A stretch of 64,000 nt of DNA, taken from NCBI GenBank assembly GCA_964607415.1, contig CAZSKK010000001.1, positions 333,469-397,468 of the forward strand, given 5' to 3'. Made by a program: the position numbers and the translations under genes. The stretch's first letter is position 1. Each line of letters starts with the position of its first letter. Below are positions 5,353-27,998 of the stretch, one piece after another. Below the pieces are notes generated by a model that saw only the letters and a list, made by a program, of their open reading frames with translations, was not told the origin of the DNA and made no database searches. Source of the DNA: an uncultured Candidatus Saccharibacteria bacterium. GTDB lineage: Bacteria; Patescibacteriota; Dojkabacteria; J137.

Positions 5353-6681
5353 ATGTTCATTTGTAGCAACTGTCAAAAAGAATTTTCTAAATGGAGTGGT
5401 CAATGTCCAAACTGTGGACAGTGGAATACACTAAATGAAGTTGATCCTTCGACTACGCTCAGGATGACAAAAACAAAATCGTCCAAAGCTTCCCGAAGCT
5501 CACGGCTCGAAGCTCGTAGCTCTCAGCAGCCAGTTAGACTTATTGATTTAGATAAAAAAGACGAAAAAGTAAGCTACAAACAAATAGAGCTCAAGACTGG
5601 TATCAAGGAATTTGATAATACAATTGGTGGAAGAATAATTTCTGGTCAAGTAATCTTGTTTGCTGGAAGCCCTGGCGTTGGTAAAAGCACTTTATCGTTA
5701 CAGATTACAGAAAGTTTTTCAAATCAAGGTTTAAAGATTCTATACATTGCAGGCGAAGAATCTCCAAGCCAAATAAAACACAGATCTGATCGATTAAAAC
5801 AAAAGCAAACTAATGTACTGTTTTACCCTGAGACAAACATAATCTCCATTCAAAACTATATTGCATCTCATTCAAAAGATATTGATTTAATTGTTGTGGA
5901 TTCAATTCAAACACTTTATTCACCGGATTTACCAAGTACTAGTGGATCCATTTCTCAAATTAGCGAATGCGCCGACAAGATTATAAGCTTAGCAAAAGGT
6001 TTTAGTATTCCTGCATTTATTATTGGTCATATTACAAAATCTGGTGAAATTGCTGGACCAAAAATTTTAGAACACATGGTTGACACAGTTTTATATTTTG
6101 AAGGTGATAAGCGTAGTGAATTAAGAATTCTTAAAGTAGAAAAAAATAGATACGGACCAACTGACGAAGCTGGGATTTTTAAAATGGCTGAAGGAGGCTT
6201 ATCAGAAGTTAAAGATACAAAAGAGCTTTTTGATCCAAGTAAAGAAGATGCTCCTGGATCTGTCTACTGTATGAGTTTAGAAGGTAACAGGCCAATAGTT
6301 GTGGAAGTTCAAGCACTTGCCACAAAAACATATTTTACAAACCCAAGAAGAACTTCTTCAGGTTTTGATTTAAATAGACTTTACATTCTCCTTGCAATTT
6401 TAGATAAAAAACTAAAACTAAAAACTTACGAATATGATGTTTATGTAAATATTACAGGAGGGATCAAAATTGTTGATCCTGGATTGGATTTAGCAGTCAT
6501 TAAAGCAATAGTTTCTTCAATTAAAAACGTAGTTGTCCCAAAAACTGAAGTATATTTTGGTGAAGTAGGTTTAACAGGTGAAGTTAGAAAAGTGATGTTT
6601 GAAGAAAAGCGAACAAAAGAATCTGAGAGAATGGGTTTTAAAAAGATAACTAATTCGAAAAATTTGAAAAGAATTAGTTAG
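5353..6681 (+). CDS. radA: DNA repair protein RadA/Sms
   Basis: N-terminal zinc finger CSNCQ...CPNCGQW, a RecA-like ATPase (GSPGVGKSTLSLQ) and a Lon-like C-terminal domain. An in-frame low-complexity insert (DPSTTLRMTKTKSSKASRSSRLEARSSQQP) is encoded by a GC-rich repeat. Confidence 0.85.
   Translation: MFICSNCQKEFSKWSGQCPNCGQWNTLNEVDPSTTLRMTKTKSSKASRSSRLEARSSQQPVRLIDLDKKDEKVSYKQIELKTGIKEFDNTIGGRIISGQVILFAGSPGVGKSTLSLQITESFSNQGLKILYIAGEESPSQIKHRSDRLKQKQTNVLFYPETNIISIQNYIASHSKDIDLIVVDSIQTLYSPDLPSTSGSISQISECADKIISLAKGFSIPAFIIGHITKSGEIAGPKILEHMVDTVLYFEGDKRSELRILKVEKNRYGPTDEAGIFKMAEGGLSEVKDTKELFDPSKEDAPGSVYCMSLEGNRPIVVEVQALATKTYFTNPRRTSSGFDLNRLYILLAILDKKLKLKTYEYDVYVNITGGIKIVDPGLDLAVIKAIVSSIKNVVVPKTEVYFGEVGLTGEVRKVMFEEKRTKESERMGFKKITNSKNLKRIS
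5447..5535. repeat. GC-rich mosaic repeat element inserted in-frame in radA
   Basis: cgactacgctcaggatgacaaaaac...cccgaagctcacggctcgaagctcgtagctctcagcagcc. Its modules are shared with 2857..2894 (cgaagctcacagctcgaaactcg), 36399..36445 (agctcgaaactcgtagct) and 3301..3420 (gctcaggatgac). Confidence 0.5.
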
Positions 6682-22691: not shown

Positions 22692-24167
22692 CTACTCTTC
22701 TCCCATCGCCCTTAAAGTCCTCCTAATCCTTGACTTTGTTTCTGCCATTTTACACTTTGCAAGCCAACCTCGATTTGTGTTTTTATGCTTTGTTGTAATT
22801 ACTTCGCACACATCTCCTGTTTGTAAAACATGATCCAATGTTACAATTTTTTTATTAATATACGCGCCATTACATCTGTCTCCAATTTGCGTATGAACTG
22901 CATAAGCAAAATCTAATGGAGTAGATCCCTTTTCCAAAATTACAACTTTTCCCTTGGGTGTAAAAACAAATACGCTTTCAGAAAATGCTTTAATTTTATA
23001 GGATTTAGTTGCTTCATCGGAGTTATTCTTCCAATCAACAAGTTCTTTGGTCCAAGTAAATGATTCTTTTTTAGAATTCATTTGGAGTTTGTATGCAATA
23101 TGGCTTGCGGGTCCAAATTCATTATATTCATGCATTTCAGCAGTTCTAATTTGAATTTCTGCAACAAAGCCATCAATATCTACTACTGTGTGAATAGATT
23201 TATATCCACTTGCTTTTGGCTTAATTATGTAATCGTCAAATTCTTCAGGGAAGTAGTCCCATTTTCCATGAATCAAACCTAAAACCAAGTAACACTCAGC
23301 CTCTGTATTTAAAATTACTCGAATTCCTAAAAGGTCTTTCAGTTTCTTAATGTGTGTTTCATTTAGAGTCTCGCCTTCATTCATATATTTCTTTTTTATT
23401 TTATTGTAGGTGCTACTATAATTTTTTGTTCTATAAGAAATGCTTACAGGCTTAACATTGTACTTTGATAATAGGTTCAAAATCTCATCCTCAACTTTTT
23501 TAAATATTGATTGGCTTTCCAAGTAAATTTTATCGGTATAAGATTTTATAAAATTATACTCTGTAGGATTTAAGATCTTTAATGCAGTGTTTTCAAATAT
23601 CGATTGAAAATGCCCCAATCCGAGATATTCACAAAGAGGCGCATACACAAGTTTTAATTTATATGCCTGATTCTTTTGAGTTTCGATTGGTAAAATATCA
23701 AGCGAAAAAGAATTATATAGTTTATTTGCAAGTCTGATTATTAAAATTCGAATATCTTCACTTGATGCAATCATAAGTTTTCTAAAGTTATCTGGATCTT
23801 CATTATGAAGTTCAAAACTTTCTGAATGCTCCTTAATCTGACTTAAACCATCAACAATAAATGCAACTTCTGTTCCAAACTTCTTATCTATTTCTTCAAT
23901 TGTTGCATGTTTTAAATCAACAATTTTGTGAAGCAGGCTTGCAATTACAGAAGTTGTGTCTAAATTAAGCTTTACAATATAGCTTGCAACAGTTAGCAAA
24001 TGTGTATCCATTGATTTGCCTGAAAGTCTTTTATCGTTCTTATGAAGTTCTGACGCATAATCAAACGCTTCTTTAATTTTTGAAACGTCGTATTTTATTA
24101 TTGAAGAATTTATTAGTTCTTCAAGTTCAGCAAAAGTTGTAATTTCGTTAAAGGTTAAGGTTTTCAT
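22692..24167 (-). CDS. relA: RelA/SpoT-family (p)ppGpp synthetase with a degenerate HD hydrolase domain and a TGS domain
   Basis: HD-like N-terminal region, but the site reads LLHKIV rather than LLHDV. Synthetase motifs DLLGIRVI and YKSIHTVVD...EIQIRTAEMHEYNEFGPASHIAYK are present. TGS domain: VFVFTPKGKVVILEKGSTPLDFAY. Confidence 0.8.
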   Translation of the reverse strand: MKTLTFNEITTFAELEELINSSIIKYDVSKIKEAFDYASELHKNDKRLSGKSMDTHLLTVASYIVKLNLDTTSVIASLLHKIVDLKHATIEEIDKKFGTEVAFIVDGLSQIKEHSESFELHNEDPDNFRKLMIASSEDIRILIIRLANKLYNSFSLDILPIETQKNQAYKLKLVYAPLCEYLGLGHFQSIFENTALKILNPTEYNFIKSYTDKIYLESQSIFKKVEDEILNLLSKYNVKPVSISYRTKNYSSTYNKIKKKYMNEGETLNETHIKKLKDLLGIRVILNTEAECYLVLGLIHGKWDYFPEEFDDYIIKPKASGYKSIHTVVDIDGFVAEIQIRTAEMHEYNEFGPASHIAYKLQMNSKKESFTWTKELVDWKNNSDEATKSYKIKAFSESVFVFTPKGKVVILEKGSTPLDFAYAVHTQIGDRCNGAYINKKIVTLDHVLQTGDVCEVITTKHKNTNRGWLAKCKMAETKSRIRRTLRAMGEE

Positions 24168-24218
24168 TAAAAGTTAGACAAATTTTTAATTTCAGATATA
24201 ATAACTTGAAAATATACT

Positions 24219-25928
24219 ATGATGCAAGCAGAAGAAACACCACCAAAGCTACCTCCTCTTCCAGATAATTACGAACTTACTATAACTGACCCTGAAAAAA
24301 CAGGTATTAGACTTTTTCGACTTGCAGATAAGCAAACCGGTATTGTAACAACCTTTATAGAGTTTAATAAAGATTTTGATATTCATGCAGCAATTGCATG
24401 GGCTGGAGCCCGAACTTCAAGAACTAATGATAGTTATGAAAGTATTTACGCTGAAATTTATGAAGCTTCTAAAGCAGGAAGATACCAAGCTGGTGAAAAA
24501 CTAATGAAAGTTTTCTTGAATTATGGACACGCCTCTGTTGCAGATATGTCACCTATTATGATTGGAATTGAAAATATTCCAATGCTTGAAGCTTTCTTTA
24601 TTTTTGATCATACAAGTGTAAACGCAGGACAAGAGCTTTCCACAAGATATGTAGAAATCTCAGATTTAGGTGTACCTGAAATTCAAGATTTGCTTGATTT
24701 GGAAAGCTTAGAAGGTGAACAAAAAGAGAAAATCCAAAAATTATGGGGAAAAATCCAAGATAATTGCTCAAGGCAATACACCAAGTGGACTTCACTTATT
24801 AAACCACGTATTGAGAAATTTATTGAAGAAGGGGGCAAAAAACCTTCAAAGGATACTGTAAATGCTAGAACTCTTGACATTGCAAGAATGTGGATTCCTG
24901 TAGGAGCAAGTACTTCTATGATCTCACTTTCTTCAACAAGAGATTGGGTAAACATGATAAAACAACTACGCGAAAATGAAAGCCCCATTTCAGATAGTAT
25001 TGCTGACCAAATCCTGGTTACTTTAAACTTAAAAAATTATAGCGAAGGCGAATCATTACAAGCCGATATAGGCAGATTAACAAAATACCACGAAGGGACC
25101 TTTACCGTTAATCAAAATTTAAAGAATCTGCAGGAACTAATTTTAACAATTTCTGAATTTTCAGATTTAGTTGATCAACCTATTTCACACGAACCTAAAT
25201 CGTCACCCAATAAAGCAAAAATATTGAACCTTGGCACAAATTATAGCCCAGGAACTTTACTTGCAGCAGAATATATTTCAGTGCTATTTCCTAATATTGA
25301 TGAGGAAGCAATATTAGAAAAACTGGTAGCTCTTGATAATAACTTAAAAGGTGAGATAGGTAGAATTATACTAGATGGACATAACCACCATGACTTACTA
25401 AAAAATGCTGCAGATGTAAGGGGCACTCTAGTTGTTGTAGAGACTGCTCTTGCATACTTAAGAGATTTAAATAGGCATAGAGCTCTAGGTAGATTAATGC
25501 ACTTACTTGAAACAAAAAATACTGACGCAATTGTCTACCAAGGATTCAACCAAAACTTTGCACTTAATAACTCAGATTATTTAAAAGATCTCTCTCCTAT
25601 GTGGGAAGAGGACATGGCCCAACATTACGAAATGATTTTTGAATTTTATGAGGTTCTCAAAGAAAGTCTTGGGGATAATTTAGATAGTAAAATTCTCAAC
25701 TATATTCTCCCATTAGGTCACCAGGTAAAAGCTCACTTTAGCGGGCCACTTTTGCAATTTGACTACATGTTAAGTTTAAGAATTTCGCTAGGGGGTGATT
25801 TTGGTTATAGGGATACTGCTCATCAAATTTTAGAGTTGTTTAGGCAAGATCCTTTTTTAATAAGTATGTTAGAAAAAATTGAGAAACCTGATCCTAATGA
25901 CTTGACTCAAGTTGTAGGAAGAAGCTAA
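24219..25928 (+). CDS. ThyX-like (flavin-dependent thymidylate synthase fold) protein with a large central insertion; function uncertain
   Basis: The N-terminal part (YGHASVADMSPIMIGIENIPMLEAFFIFDHTSVNAGQELSTRY) and C-terminal part (ILPLGHQVKAHFSGPLLQFDYMLSLRIS) align by eye with ThyX blocks (GHETPFEH...[40 protein letters not shown]). The RHR residues are replaced by DHT. Confidence 0.4.
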   Translation: MMQAEETPPKLPPLPDNYELTITDPEKTGIRLFRLADKQTGIVTTFIEFNKDFDIHAAIAWAGARTSRTNDSYESIYAEIYEASKAGRYQAGEKLMKVFLNYGHASVADMSPIMIGIENIPMLEAFFIFDHTSVNAGQELSTRYVEISDLGVPEIQDLLDLESLEGEQKEKIQKLWGKIQDNCSRQYTKWTSLIKPRIEKFIEEGGKKPSKDTVNARTLDIARMWIPVGASTSMISLSSTRDWVNMIKQLRENESPISDSIADQILVTLNLKNYSEGESLQADIGRLTKYHEGTFTVNQNLKNLQELILTISEFSDLVDQPISHEPKSSPNKAKILNLGTNYSPGTLLAAEYISVLFPNIDEEAILEKLVALDNNLKGEIGRIILDGHNHHDLLKNAADVRGTLVVVETALAYLRDLNRHRALGRLMHLLETKNTDAIVYQGFNQNFALNNSDYLKDLSPMWEEDMAQHYEMIFEFYEVLKESLGDNLDSKILNYILPLGHQVKAHFSGPLLQFDYMLSLRISLGGDFGYRDTAHQILELFRQDPFLISMLEKIEKPDPNDLTQVVGRS

Positions 25929-25996: not shown

Positions 25997-26548
25997 ATGA
26001 TTTTATCTGACAAAACTCTAAAAAAATTAATTGATAATAAAGAAATTGTAATAACACCACTTTCAGAAAATGCAATACAACCAGCGTCTGTAGATTGCAG
26101 GCTTGGAGAAAAATTTCTAGTTTTAGAAGATTCAATGGAATCTATCCGCATGGATGAGCCTATAAAATATCGAGAAATTATTACTAACGAAATCACAATA
26201 CCTCCAAAATCTTTTATACTCGGAACCACTATGGAATATTTGGAGCTTCCATCAAATCTTACTGTATTTATTGAAGGAAGAAGCTCCATTGGTAGAATGG
26301 GATTGTTTATTGAGAATGCCGGTTGGATAGATCCTGGCTTTAAAGGCAATTTAACTTTGGAATTATACAACGCGAATTCTTTACCAATTAAACTTATAGC
26401 TGGAAGACGTATTTGCCAGTTTGTATTTTGCATGATGGACCAAGAAGCTGAAATTCCTTATGGTGATTCTCGTCTTAAAAGCAAATATCAAGGCCAAGCC
26501 TCGACTGTTGGAAGTCTTATTTCTCAAGACATTGAAACTAAAAAATAG
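25997..26548 (+). CDS. dcd: dCTP deaminase
   Basis: 183 aa with PASVDCRLG, GRSSIGRMG and AGWIDPGFKG motifs (Dcd/dUTPase fold). Confidence 0.8.
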   Translation: MILSDKTLKKLIDNKEIVITPLSENAIQPASVDCRLGEKFLVLEDSMESIRMDEPIKYREIITNEITIPPKSFILGTTMEYLELPSNLTVFIEGRSSIGRMGLFIENAGWIDPGFKGNLTLELYNANSLPIKLIAGRRICQFVFCMMDQEAEIPYGDSRLKSKYQGQASTVGSLISQDIETKK

Positions 26549-26666: not shown

Positions 26667-27998
26667 ATGCACAGAGATCTAACCCAATCCACAATTCAAG
26701 ATGTTAATGCAAGATTTTATAATGTAGATTTGTCAAAAAGCTATGTTGAGTCGGGCAAAAAATTTGCAGAAGTTTTGCAAAAGCACTATGGTACAAACAA
26801 ATCCTATTCTATTGTATGCGGTCTTGGTGGAAACGCAGGTGATGGTTTATCAACCGCTCTTGAACTCTCAAAAAATAATACACAGGTTAAAGTCTTTTTA
26901 GTTGGAAGAGCAAATTTAATTGAGAATGTTTCTACAAAGGACCTTTGGGATAAAGTCTATAATAATAAATCGATAGAAACAAAGCAGGACTGTTACGCTA
27001 AAGATATAGAAAAATCAGACATAATTTTAGAGTGTTTAGTAGGAACTGGACTTGCTGGATCTACGCTTAATAAAAGGTTTTTTGATGTTATTAAAAGCAT
27101 TTCCCACTTTAAGTCCGAAATTGTTGCTATTGATAAATCCTGCCCACATTACACCCCCAGTTTAGTTGTATCAATCAACTATCCCAAAACTGAAAATGCT
27201 GAAGTTATAAAAGTAAGTTATCCACAAAGCTTGGATTTGCATATTGGTCCTGGCGAAGTAAAAAGTTTAATAAAACCTAAAATACAATCTCACAAAAATA
27301 AAAATGGCAAAGTATTAATAATTAATGATTTAGATAACGATTGTAATGAACTTGTTGCAACTGCGATTAAACAATATGAATGTAGTGCAAGTGTTTATAG
27401 CTTTAGAGGTGTTGGTAAAAATAAGCTTTTTGATAAAGTTTTATCTAATGGTGATTTGGAAGAAGCTATAGTCGAGTGTAATTCTGTGTTCTTAAGTGAG
27501 CTACCTGTGGATGATTTTATTTCAAAGGCATTTGTAAATGAACTTGTTAAATACATTGAAGATAAACCTTTAATAATATTCGGAAGTGCGCTCAATTACT
27601 TTGATGCTGATCTTTTAAAAAGAATTAAAAATAAAATACTATTTTTTGATTTAACAAGTTTTTTTAGATTTTCAAATTCAAAAATAAGTAAGGTTGAAGG
27701 ATTAGCTGCAAGGTTAGCAAAAGAAACTTCATCAACTTGCGTAATATATTCAACACAAACTTATATTTTTGACGAAGAAGGAAATTACAAAATTCATCCT
27801 AAAAATATAAATGACTATAACTCTAAACTAATAATCACAAGCCTTACCGCAGCTTTTGCTTCTAAAAATTCAACAGCGCTTTCTGCAGGAAGTGCAAATT
27901 TTGTTTATAGTGTTGCTGAAAAATTAAGTGCAGATCCTTCACCAACCAATGTTGCTAAATCTTTATCTGCTGCTTACAACGAGTGTCTTGAATTTTGA
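26667..27998 (+). CDS. nnr: Bifunctional NAD(P)H-hydrate repair enzyme-like protein (YjeF_N epimerase plus YjeF_C-like domains)
   Basis: YjeF_N motifs YSIVCGLGGNAGDGLSTALEL, ECLVGTGLAGS and VAIDKSCPH. The C-terminal part begins HKNKNGKVLIIND, resembling the YjeF_C HKGxxG motif. Confidence 0.55.
   Translation: MHRDLTQSTIQDVNARFYNVDLSKSYVESGKKFAEVLQKHYGTNKSYSIVCGLGGNAGDGLSTALELSKNNTQVKVFLVGRANLIENVSTKDLWDKVYNNKSIETKQDCYAKDIEKSDIILECLVGTGLAGSTLNKRFFDVIKSISHFKSEIVAIDKSCPHYTPSLVVSINYPKTENAEVIKVSYPQSLDLHIGPGEVKSLIKPKIQSHKNKNGKVLIINDLDNDCNELVATAIKQYECSASVYSFRGVGKNKLFDKVLSNGDLEEAIVECNSVFLSELPVDDFISKAFVNELVKYIEDKPLIIFGSALNYFDADLLKRIKNKILFFDLTSFFRFSNSKISKVEGLAARLAKETSSTCVIYSTQTYIFDEEGNYKIHPKNINDYNSKLIITSLTAAFASKNSTALSAGSANFVYSVAEKLSADPSPTNVAKSLSAAYNECLEF

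Follow-up and report, generated by a model that had tools for sequence, protein, structure and literature searches.

The ThyX gene of the window and its two domains

The window analysed here is a 64-kb stretch of DNA (64,000 nucleotides; contig CAZSKK010000001.1, positions 333,469 to 397,468) from an uncultured Candidatus Saccharibacteria bacterium, whose genome is low in guanine plus cytosine (GC, ~33%). On its forward strand lies an open reading frame (ORF), confirmed as real, whose 569-aa product is related to ThyX, the flavin-dependent thymidylate synthase (FDTS), and which is followed by dcd, the gene of dCTP deaminase (Table 1). The protein is best explained as a long-form ThyX in which two ThyX domains are fused in one chain and the active sites are shared between the domains, a reading to which we assign a probability of roughly three in four.

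Table 1. Features of the long ThyX gene and its surroundings, in window positions. Residue counterparts are those of Thermotoga maritima and Mycobacterium tuberculosis ThyX and of A674R of Paramecium bursaria chlorella virus 1 (PBCV-1); the last column counts the sequences that keep a residue among 266 aligned long forms. FAD, flavin adenine dinucleotide; dUMP, deoxyuridine monophosphate.
Feature	Position	Strand	Counterpart, evidence or remark	Kept (of 266)
Promoter-like site TAGACA-16 nt-TATAAT	24175..24202	+	17 nt 5' of the ATG; 11/12 consensus matches, the region's best	
Long-form (two-domain) ThyX gene	24219..25928	+	569 aa plus stop	
Predicted N-terminal ThyX domain, ~residues 16-270	24264..25028	+	Thy1 match, secondary-structure order, conservation; keeps GHxS/R165 and Ser-Arg-Tyr loop roles, without RHR	
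G103-H104-A105-S106	24525..24536	+	T. maritima G52-H53-E54-T55, M. tuberculosis S71; has the His that stacks on flavin/folate and a contact to the FAD phosphate (roles: PMC11940539, PMC6514825)	H104 261; S106 262
D130-H131-T132-S133	24606..24617	+	Degenerate RHR position, opposite T. maritima R78-H79-R80; family columns N/Y; E/L/H; T/N/G; S/P/A	
Q138-E-L-S141-T-R143-Y144	24630..24650	+	T. maritima N85-E86-L-S88-G-R90-Y91; dUMP and flavin-carbinolamine loop	Q138 265; S141 266; R143 266; Y/F144 266
R217-T-L-D220-I-A-R223	24867..24887	+	T. maritima E144...R147 helix	D220 266; R223 261
S239-T-R241	24933..24941	+	T. maritima N163-A-R165, M. tuberculosis R190; FAD phosphate contact from second subunit (role: PMC6514825)	R241 254
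Inter-domain linker, ~residues 271-340	25029..25238	+	Partly helical (AlphaFold2 helices H296-308, H312-318)	
Predicted C-terminal ThyX domain, ~residues 341-569	25239..25925	+	Keeps RHR and R174 equivalent, without serine loop	
R415-D416-L-N-R419-H420-R421-A-L-G-R425	25461..25493	+	C-domain RHR motif (R419-H420-R421 = T. maritima R78-H79-R80), then 6-residue deletion of the N85-S88 loop; D416 at the Q75 position, R425 at the R90 position	R419 266; H420 242; R421 259; D416 266; R425 249
Y516-M-L-S-L-R521	25764..25781	+	R521 = T. maritima R174, PBCV-1 R182; 'slR' on 'ELR' of PBCV-1 ThyX	R521 266
C-terminal G-R568-S	25917..25925	+	Penultimate Arg	R568 266
dcd (dCTP deaminase)	25997..26548	+	TIGR02274 185 bits (cut-off 92.8); Pfam DCD 2.9e-44	

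The Pfam family Thy1 (PF02511) matches the 569-aa protein in two stretches, with an E-value of 9.4e-15 and 55.3 bits (gathering score 24.8). The assignment to the ThyX family, which an earlier sequence-only reading of this DNA had made by eye, is therefore upheld, and the lack of a Thy1 match, which that reading had named as a refutation, is not observed. The best stretch places profile positions 13-165 of 191 on residues 60-250, and these belong to the N-terminal half of the protein.

The C-terminal half was aligned to ThyX with the aid of two profiles, one of 30 homologues and one of the C-half only (residues 318-569). Positions 390-539 of the former, which represent its C-terminal part, align to residues 56-207 of PBCV-1 ThyX with an E-value of 5e-6, the RHR falling on the RHR and a 6-residue gap following it. 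The C-half profile matches the same protein with an E-value of 1.4e-6. Pfam Thy1 is matched independently by 15 of 21 family C-halves (best E 3.2e-6), and the C-half of the window protein alone reaches 17.5 bits against it. For the linker stretch (~residues 271-340), no family match was found.

Structure prediction points in the same direction. The AlphaFold2 model of the full protein has a mean predicted local distance difference test score (pLDDT) of 89.7 and a predicted template modelling (pTM) score of 0.89, and the predicted structure has the three-dimensional fold of ThyX. The C-half (residues 318-569) modelled in isolation has a pLDDT of 89.1 and gives 128 Foldseek matches in the PDB at E<=1e-3. 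All 50 matches listed are ThyX or PolB, with ~220 aligned columns and target TM scores of 0.52-0.67. In the full model, the order of strands (E) and helices (H) is common to both halves: E112-121 pairs with E402-410, H122-130 with H411-417, E136-139 with E424-427, H166-204 with H456-487, H211-225 with H490-496, E231-239 with E501-509, H240-252 with H511-521, and H256-269 with H528-542.

From these data we consider the protein to be almost certainly two ThyX folds in tandem. A direct comparison of the N-half with the C-half by BLASTP and HHalign gave no convincing match, the best being an HHalign E-value of ~1e-3 over an LP-loop/beta/helix segment. The case for duplication thus rests on each half matching ThyX separately, and the divergence of the halves implies that the duplication is old. 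The sequence-only reading had instead described a single ThyX domain split by a central insertion of ~250 aa that contains the second RHR; on this view, the motif would be there by chance. The N- and C-terminal blocks do resemble ThyX by eye, and a whole-protein phmmer search of the PDB is marginal, yielding a weak C-terminal match (residues 456-547, E ~0.7), so that a family profile was needed. Nevertheless, we regard the insertion as scarcely credible, and ruled out for practical purposes, since the N-block alone provides the Thy1 coverage given above, the C-half aligns separately to ThyX with its RHR included, the isolated C-half model has a complete ThyX fold and retrieves only ThyX or PolB among the Foldseek matches listed, and the secondary-structure pattern is repeated.

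Division of the catalytic residues and the proposed active sites

To place the catalytic residues, 266 distinct long-form sequences were aligned and their columns mapped onto T. maritima ThyX, whose sequence as used here is identical to PDB 1kq4. The HHalign alignments of each half to this single sequence have very low probability; they were used for residue mapping only and were cross-checked with HMMER alignments to PBCV-1 ThyX. All ten catalytic or ligand-binding residues (H53, R78, H79, R80, S88, R90, Y91, R147, R165 and R174 in T. maritima) have a counterpart in one of the two domains, kept in 242-266 of the 266 sequences.

The losses in the two domains are complementary. In the N-domain, the positions of R78, H79 and R80 are variable across the 266 members (N/Y, E/L/H and S/P/A, respectively), and the R174 position is occupied by a hydrophobic residue or by K/R. 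In the C-domain, a 6-residue deletion takes out the N85-S88 loop, the R147 and R165 positions are variable, and the stretch equivalent to H53 is not invariant in the 30-homologue alignment, in which it was not counted column by column. The contiguous ThyX motif RHRxxSxxxxSxR is hence complete in neither domain, and only the two together supply it: the N-domain reads DHTS...ELSTRY, and the C-domain has RHR, the 6-residue deletion and GR(L/F).

The sequence-only reading had correctly noted that the RHR-aligned position is altered to DHT (D130-H131-T132, followed by S133). An altered RHR is found in the N-domain of all 266 family members, and at no invariant position does the window protein depart from the family. 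The alteration is therefore a family trait. That reading had also recognised a second RHR downstream in LNRHRALGRL. This motif (R419-H420-R421) exists, lying 289 rather than ~270 residues further on and in the second ThyX domain rather than in an insert.

The ThyX tetramer, in which three subunits contribute to every active site (PMC3498832, PMC11940539, PMC6514825), suggests a meaning for this division. In M. tuberculosis numbering, a first subunit (role A) contributes RHR 95-97 and R199 (T. maritima R174), a second (role B) S71 and R190 (T. maritima R165), and a third (role C) the backbone of Q103 together with S105, R107 and Y108; the last four correspond to E86, S88, R90 and Y91 in T. maritima (PMC6514825). 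Among the T. maritima residues, S88, R90, Y91 and R174 serve methylene transfer and dUMP activation (PMC8316439), R174 or its PBCV-1 equivalent R182 activating dUMP (PMC8316439, PMC3498832). R78 stabilises the reduced flavin, and H53 stacks on flavin or folate (PMC11940539). In the long form, the residues of role A survive in the C-domain only, and those of roles B and C in the N-domain only. By these correspondences, H104, S106, R241 and R223 of the N-domain would be the stacking His, the Ser of GHxS, the FAD-phosphate Arg and the dUMP-phosphate Arg, and S141, R143 and Y144 would form the Ser-x-Arg-Tyr loop. The C-domain RHR would bind FAD and stabilise the reduced flavin, and R521 would activate dUMP.

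We propose that a homodimer of fused chains rebuilds a ThyX-like pseudo-tetramer of 222 symmetry. Role A would fall to each C-domain, and every N-domain would serve one site in role B and the other in role C. Two complete FAD/dUMP sites may arise in this way, each composed of a C-domain (A), an N-domain (B) and the other N-domain (C), and the two remaining sites, which would be left without any of these residues, are predicted to be dead. A single chain cannot complete a site, as it has one N-domain and roles B and C require two. The enzyme would then methylate dUMP to thymidine monophosphate (dTMP) with methylene-tetrahydrofolate (methylene-THF) and NAD(P)H, with the adjacent dcd feeding the dUMP precursor. 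It is very likely that the window protein is a working thymidylate synthase; a homodimeric form with two composite sites appears likely as well, with somewhat less assurance.

An active long-form synthase might also follow a different quaternary logic, as a one-site monomer, as an eight-domain tetramer, or with both site types active through substitute residues. R425 at the R90 position of the C-domain and K/R251 of the N-domain are fairly conserved and could form a second type of site. We nonetheless consider such arrangements rather unlikely, given that one chain does not suffice for roles B and C, both kept in the N-domain only, that the N-domain has neither a conserved RHR nor the R174 residue, and that the deletion has removed the catalytic loop of the C-domain. 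It is also improbable, in our estimate, that the two degenerate pockets of the proposed homodimer have been repurposed as a dedicated site for NAD(P)H, for folate or for an allosteric nucleotide, a kind of site absent from canonical ThyX, or for a shifted substrate specificity, with R425, G525-G526, Y530-R531, R568 and D416 involved. If this were true, the long form would be a mechanistically distinct class of flavin-dependent nucleotide methylases, spread over the candidate phyla radiation (CPR), DPANN, Chloroflexota, cyanobacteria and phages.

Two invariant positions deserve separate mention. The last three residues form an invariant (D/G)-R-S, whose arginine, R568, has no counterpart in canonical ThyX and may act as a C-terminal arginine finger that reaches an active site. 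At D416 (window 25464-25466), the family has an invariant Asp where solved ThyX structures have Gln75, a residue that lines the uracil pocket (PMC3498832). The replacement could alter the substrate contacts.

Gene neighbourhoods, distribution and the question of another activity

In the window, no terminator-like site was found on the forward strand between the ThyX gene and dcd. The two genes are probably co-transcribed, and the product of dcd would supply the dUTP/dUMP precursor for ThyX. The TAGACA/TATAAT site upstream of the ThyX gene is a consensus match only, the region containing 14 promoter-like sites against 10.0 +/- 2.8 in shuffles. A divergent gene for a RelA/SpoT-family protein (HD_4, RelA_SpoT and TGS; 491 aa) lies at 22692-24167 on the reverse strand, its start codon 51 bp from that of the ThyX gene. 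Beyond dcd, a 443-aa protein is encoded at 26667-27998 (+) with a clear YjeF_N (NAD(P)HX epimerase) domain; its Carb_kinase/dehydratase match is very weak (12.4 bits, cut-off 27). Scanning the window for Rfam families and tRNAs gave one tRNA-Asn and nothing bearing on the ThyX finding.

The vicinity of the long ThyX gene was also surveyed in 82 related loci. In 48 of them, one or more of dcd, dCMP deaminase, glyA, folD, folA and tmk is present. A dcd homologue occurs in 37 loci, either directly downstream, as in the window, or directly upstream. The genes glyA (serine hydroxymethyltransferase, SHMT; NF000586 600 bits) and folD are each found in 29, tmk in six, dCMP deaminase in five and folA in one. 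The dCTP deaminase that the sequence-only reading had named as the next gene is confirmed by the scores in Table 1, and these neighbours bear out the fitting pathway context it had seen. The arrangements vary by lineage: folD-glyA-thyX-dcd in Dojkabacteria, dcd-thyX-folA in a metagenome-assembled genome (MAG) of SR1, and thyX followed by tmk in a MAG of Nanoarchaeota. As they differ between phyla, selection on the linkage can be argued for. The Dojkabacteria arrangement, extended to folD-glyA-thyX-dcd-sufS with a long ThyX of 531 aa, recurs in ~29 species-level Dojkabacteria-type genomes (our loci L033-L080; e.g. L069:2658-3869 and L073:1482-2333). The gene neighbourhoods support a role in dTMP synthesis.

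Several of these loci show further features. In the Nanoarchaeota MAG (JBDRSD010000078.1, L026:5670-6791, +), an ORF directly 3' of the long ThyX gene fuses a nucleoside 2-deoxyribosyltransferase-like part with a thymidylate kinase, and Tmk homologues near the long ThyX gene are also present at L034, L040, L043, L046 and L077. The SR1 MAG (JACMQI010000030.1, L010:3381-6182, +) has a compact cluster of dcd, long ThyX and a folA-like ORF (5682-6182) that matches Escherichia coli FolA at 5e-22. ThyX yields tetrahydrofolate rather than dihydrofolate, and a dihydrofolate reductase beside a ThyX-type enzyme is for this reason unexpected. In a Dojkabacteria MAG (WJKM01000019.1, L002:7226-7954, +), a 242-aa ORF lies between dCMP deaminase and the long ThyX gene, with SurE (5'-nucleotidase) further upstream; this ORF matches no NCBIfam model at E<=1e-5, and no Pfam family is recorded for it. 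The Ktedonobacteria loci, with ClpB, a LacI-type regulator, LysE and PhoD-like neighbours, are uninformative for the dTMP pathway.

The family is widely distributed. A word-indexed protein search returned 70 full-length relatives of 424-587 aa and showed that a protein 96% identical to the window protein exists. When 1.84 billion cluster representatives were searched exhaustively with a profile, 347 matched at E<=1e-30 and 2444 at E<=1e-3. With one genome scanned for each GTDB species, the long form turned up in 146 species, the closest of which are Patescibacteria MAGs with 47-48% identity. Carriers in CPR/Patescibacteria comprise Dojkabacteria, Woesebacteria, Daviesbacteria, SR1, Paceibacterota and MAGs labelled Saccharibacteria; those in DPANN are Woesearchaeota and Nanoarchaeota. 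Among cultured Ktedonobacteria, five Dictyobacter species and Thermosporothrix hazakensis carry it, and a few MAGs under other labels are to be treated with caution. The homology with the Ktedonobacteria proteins (Dictyobacter, Thermosporothrix hazakensis and Ktedonobacteraceae MAGs) extends over the full length, the tblastn alignments covering residues ~1-569 or 18-569 with 27-29% identity and E-values of 1e-45 to 4e-56, and the Chloroflexota proteins show the same invariant residues as the window protein.

Phage copies are known from the Microcystis phages Ma-LMM01 and MaMV, the Tunturiibacter phage Tunturi_5 and a Microcoleus phage (records NC_008562.1, PP885688.1 and OR578706.1), and the long form occurs on ~28 IMG/VR contigs (L084-L110). 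A 144-kb contig (CAZDZR010000001.1, L083) that carries a long ThyX gene alongside NblA, PhoH, a RecA-like gene and a tail-collar gene looks like a cyanophage. The exhaustive search also returned single-half proteins of 220-275 aa with E-values of 1e-69 to 1e-87, matching the N-half (P0172, P0176, P0189, P0195) or the C-half (P0183, P0187, P0199). Such proteins may be truncated at contig ends, may stem from genes that an alternative genetic code splits, or may represent truly separate subunits of N and C type. Many members are named 'thymidylate synthase ThyX' at JGI, several MAG copies 'hypothetical protein' at NCBI, and a 550-aa Calothrix member (WP_190627989.1) 'FAD-dependent thymidylate synthase' in RefSeq.

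Several points weigh against the long-form ThyX reading or narrow it. The protein scores 42.4 bits with TIGR02170, the ThyX equivalog family, below its cut-off of 87.9. Some alignments to T. maritima ThyX depend on a single-sequence template with low HHalign probability, and a one-residue ambiguity remains as to whether L250 or R251 of the N-domain lies opposite R174. The invariant R425, D416, G525-G526, Y530-R531 and R568 are unexplained by the canonical mechanism, and the dimeric state with its two live and two dead sites is drawn from homology. Most of the loci counted for dcd, glyA and folD are related ones of the Dojkabacteria type, and the counts are hence not independent observations. 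No thyA, folA, canonical thyX, glyA or folD was found within the 64-kb window by tblastn (with E. coli ThyA and FolA, T. maritima ThyX, SHMT and FolD) or by Pfam on 14 ORFs, and this result extends to the window only. No long-form member was detected in the PDB by the family and C-half profiles, and literature searches for the biochemistry or structure of a tandem ThyX gave only a remark of 2009 (PMC3224940).

The low TIGR02170 score might also be expected of a ThyX-derived enzyme with another activity, which might, for example, (hydroxy)methylate another pyrimidine nucleotide such as UMP or dCMP, as PolB does with UMP, or take a new ligand in its degenerate sites. The family is just 12-19% identical to solved ThyX proteins, the invariant D416 replaces the uracil-pocket Gln75, several other invariant residues are without canonical counterpart, PolB is among the structural matches, and copies exist in phages, which often modify DNA bases. 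Such an activity seems improbable to us all the same: every residue shown to matter in binding or activating dUMP or in transferring the methylene is kept, and the neighbours are suppliers of dUMP (dcd, dCMP deaminase) and of methylene-THF (glyA, folD) and a consumer of dTMP (tmk). In addition, a domain-duplicated ThyX was reported as the sole thymidylate synthase of the Chloroflexi except Dehalococcoides (Valas & Bourne 2009, PMC3224940). The sequence-only reading had left the choice between an unusually elaborated ThyX and a protein of different function. With the catalytic residues all present and the pathway neighbours in place, the evidence favours the elaborated ThyX, and nothing that we found supports the different function.

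Standing of the long form and comparison with known systems

Judged by its sequence, the window gene is a typical member of the domain-duplicated ThyX family. ThyX is a target for antibacterials, and its active site, to which three subunits contribute, is a textbook example of such sharing. The long form may be regarded as a natural experiment in which fusion has made a pseudo-hetero-oligomer out of a homo-oligomer, each copy keeping only the residues for its own role. For Ktedonobacteria, some phages and many CPR and DPANN organisms with reduced genomes, it may be the sole route to thymidylate. With scores under the curated ThyX threshold and labels such as 'hypothetical protein', dTMP synthesis can be missed in metabolic reconstructions. 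The architecture itself has been known since 2009 (PMC3224940), and databases already call many members ThyX; the complementary split at residue level is an elegant feature that lends itself to testing, in an enzyme class that has received little study.

Among divergent relatives, the chlamydial ThyX has to be considered, a protein of ~529 aa that may also be a two-domain form. No Chlamydia-named protein was present among the long-form matches, including those of a second protein search with a broader alignment, which returned essentially the same proteins as the first. The chlamydial enzyme is so divergent that ThyX phylogenies omitted it (PMC6171736), and it is active in NADPH-oxidation assays (PMC3498832). 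The UMP/dUMP methylase PolB (Streptomyces cacaoi; PDB 4p5a/4p5b) shares the ThyX fold and is retrieved as a structural match of the window protein. It differs in having a single domain and in serving nucleoside-antibiotic biosynthesis, a gene context that is not seen around the window gene.

The long 'thymidylate synthases' of cyanobacteria and of phages (Calothrix, Ma-LMM01/MaMV, Tunturi_5), which databases name FAD-dependent or putative thymidylate synthase, are likewise two-domain proteins of 470-550 aa. Two of the proteins compared (P0162 and P0181) share the family motifs YGH(T/S)SVAD, GQ(E/Q)RS(T/S)RY, (D)L(N/V)RHR, GGHINYR and a C-terminal DRS, although the cyanobacterial and phage forms are only ~20-24% identical to the window protein. 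The duplicated ThyX of Chloroflexi (PMC3224940) has the same architecture as the window protein, two ThyX domains per chain, and the report of it states "domain duplication ... not been characterized", with no residue-level or mechanistic description. The window gene differs from it in coming from a low-GC genome and in having Patescibacteria (CPR) MAGs as its nearest relatives.

With canonical ThyX (PF02511, TIGR02170; T. maritima TM0449, M. tuberculosis ThyX, PBCV-1 A674R), the long form has in common the fold of both halves, the equivalents of the catalytic residues and the pathway context of dUMP and methylene-THF supply. The canonical enzyme consists of one domain of ~220-260 aa with a contiguous RHRxxSxxxxSxR motif and forms a homotetramer with four identical sites. 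In contrast, the long form combines two fused domains with a motif divided into SxRY (N-domain) and RHR (C-domain), and two of its four sites are predicted to be dead.

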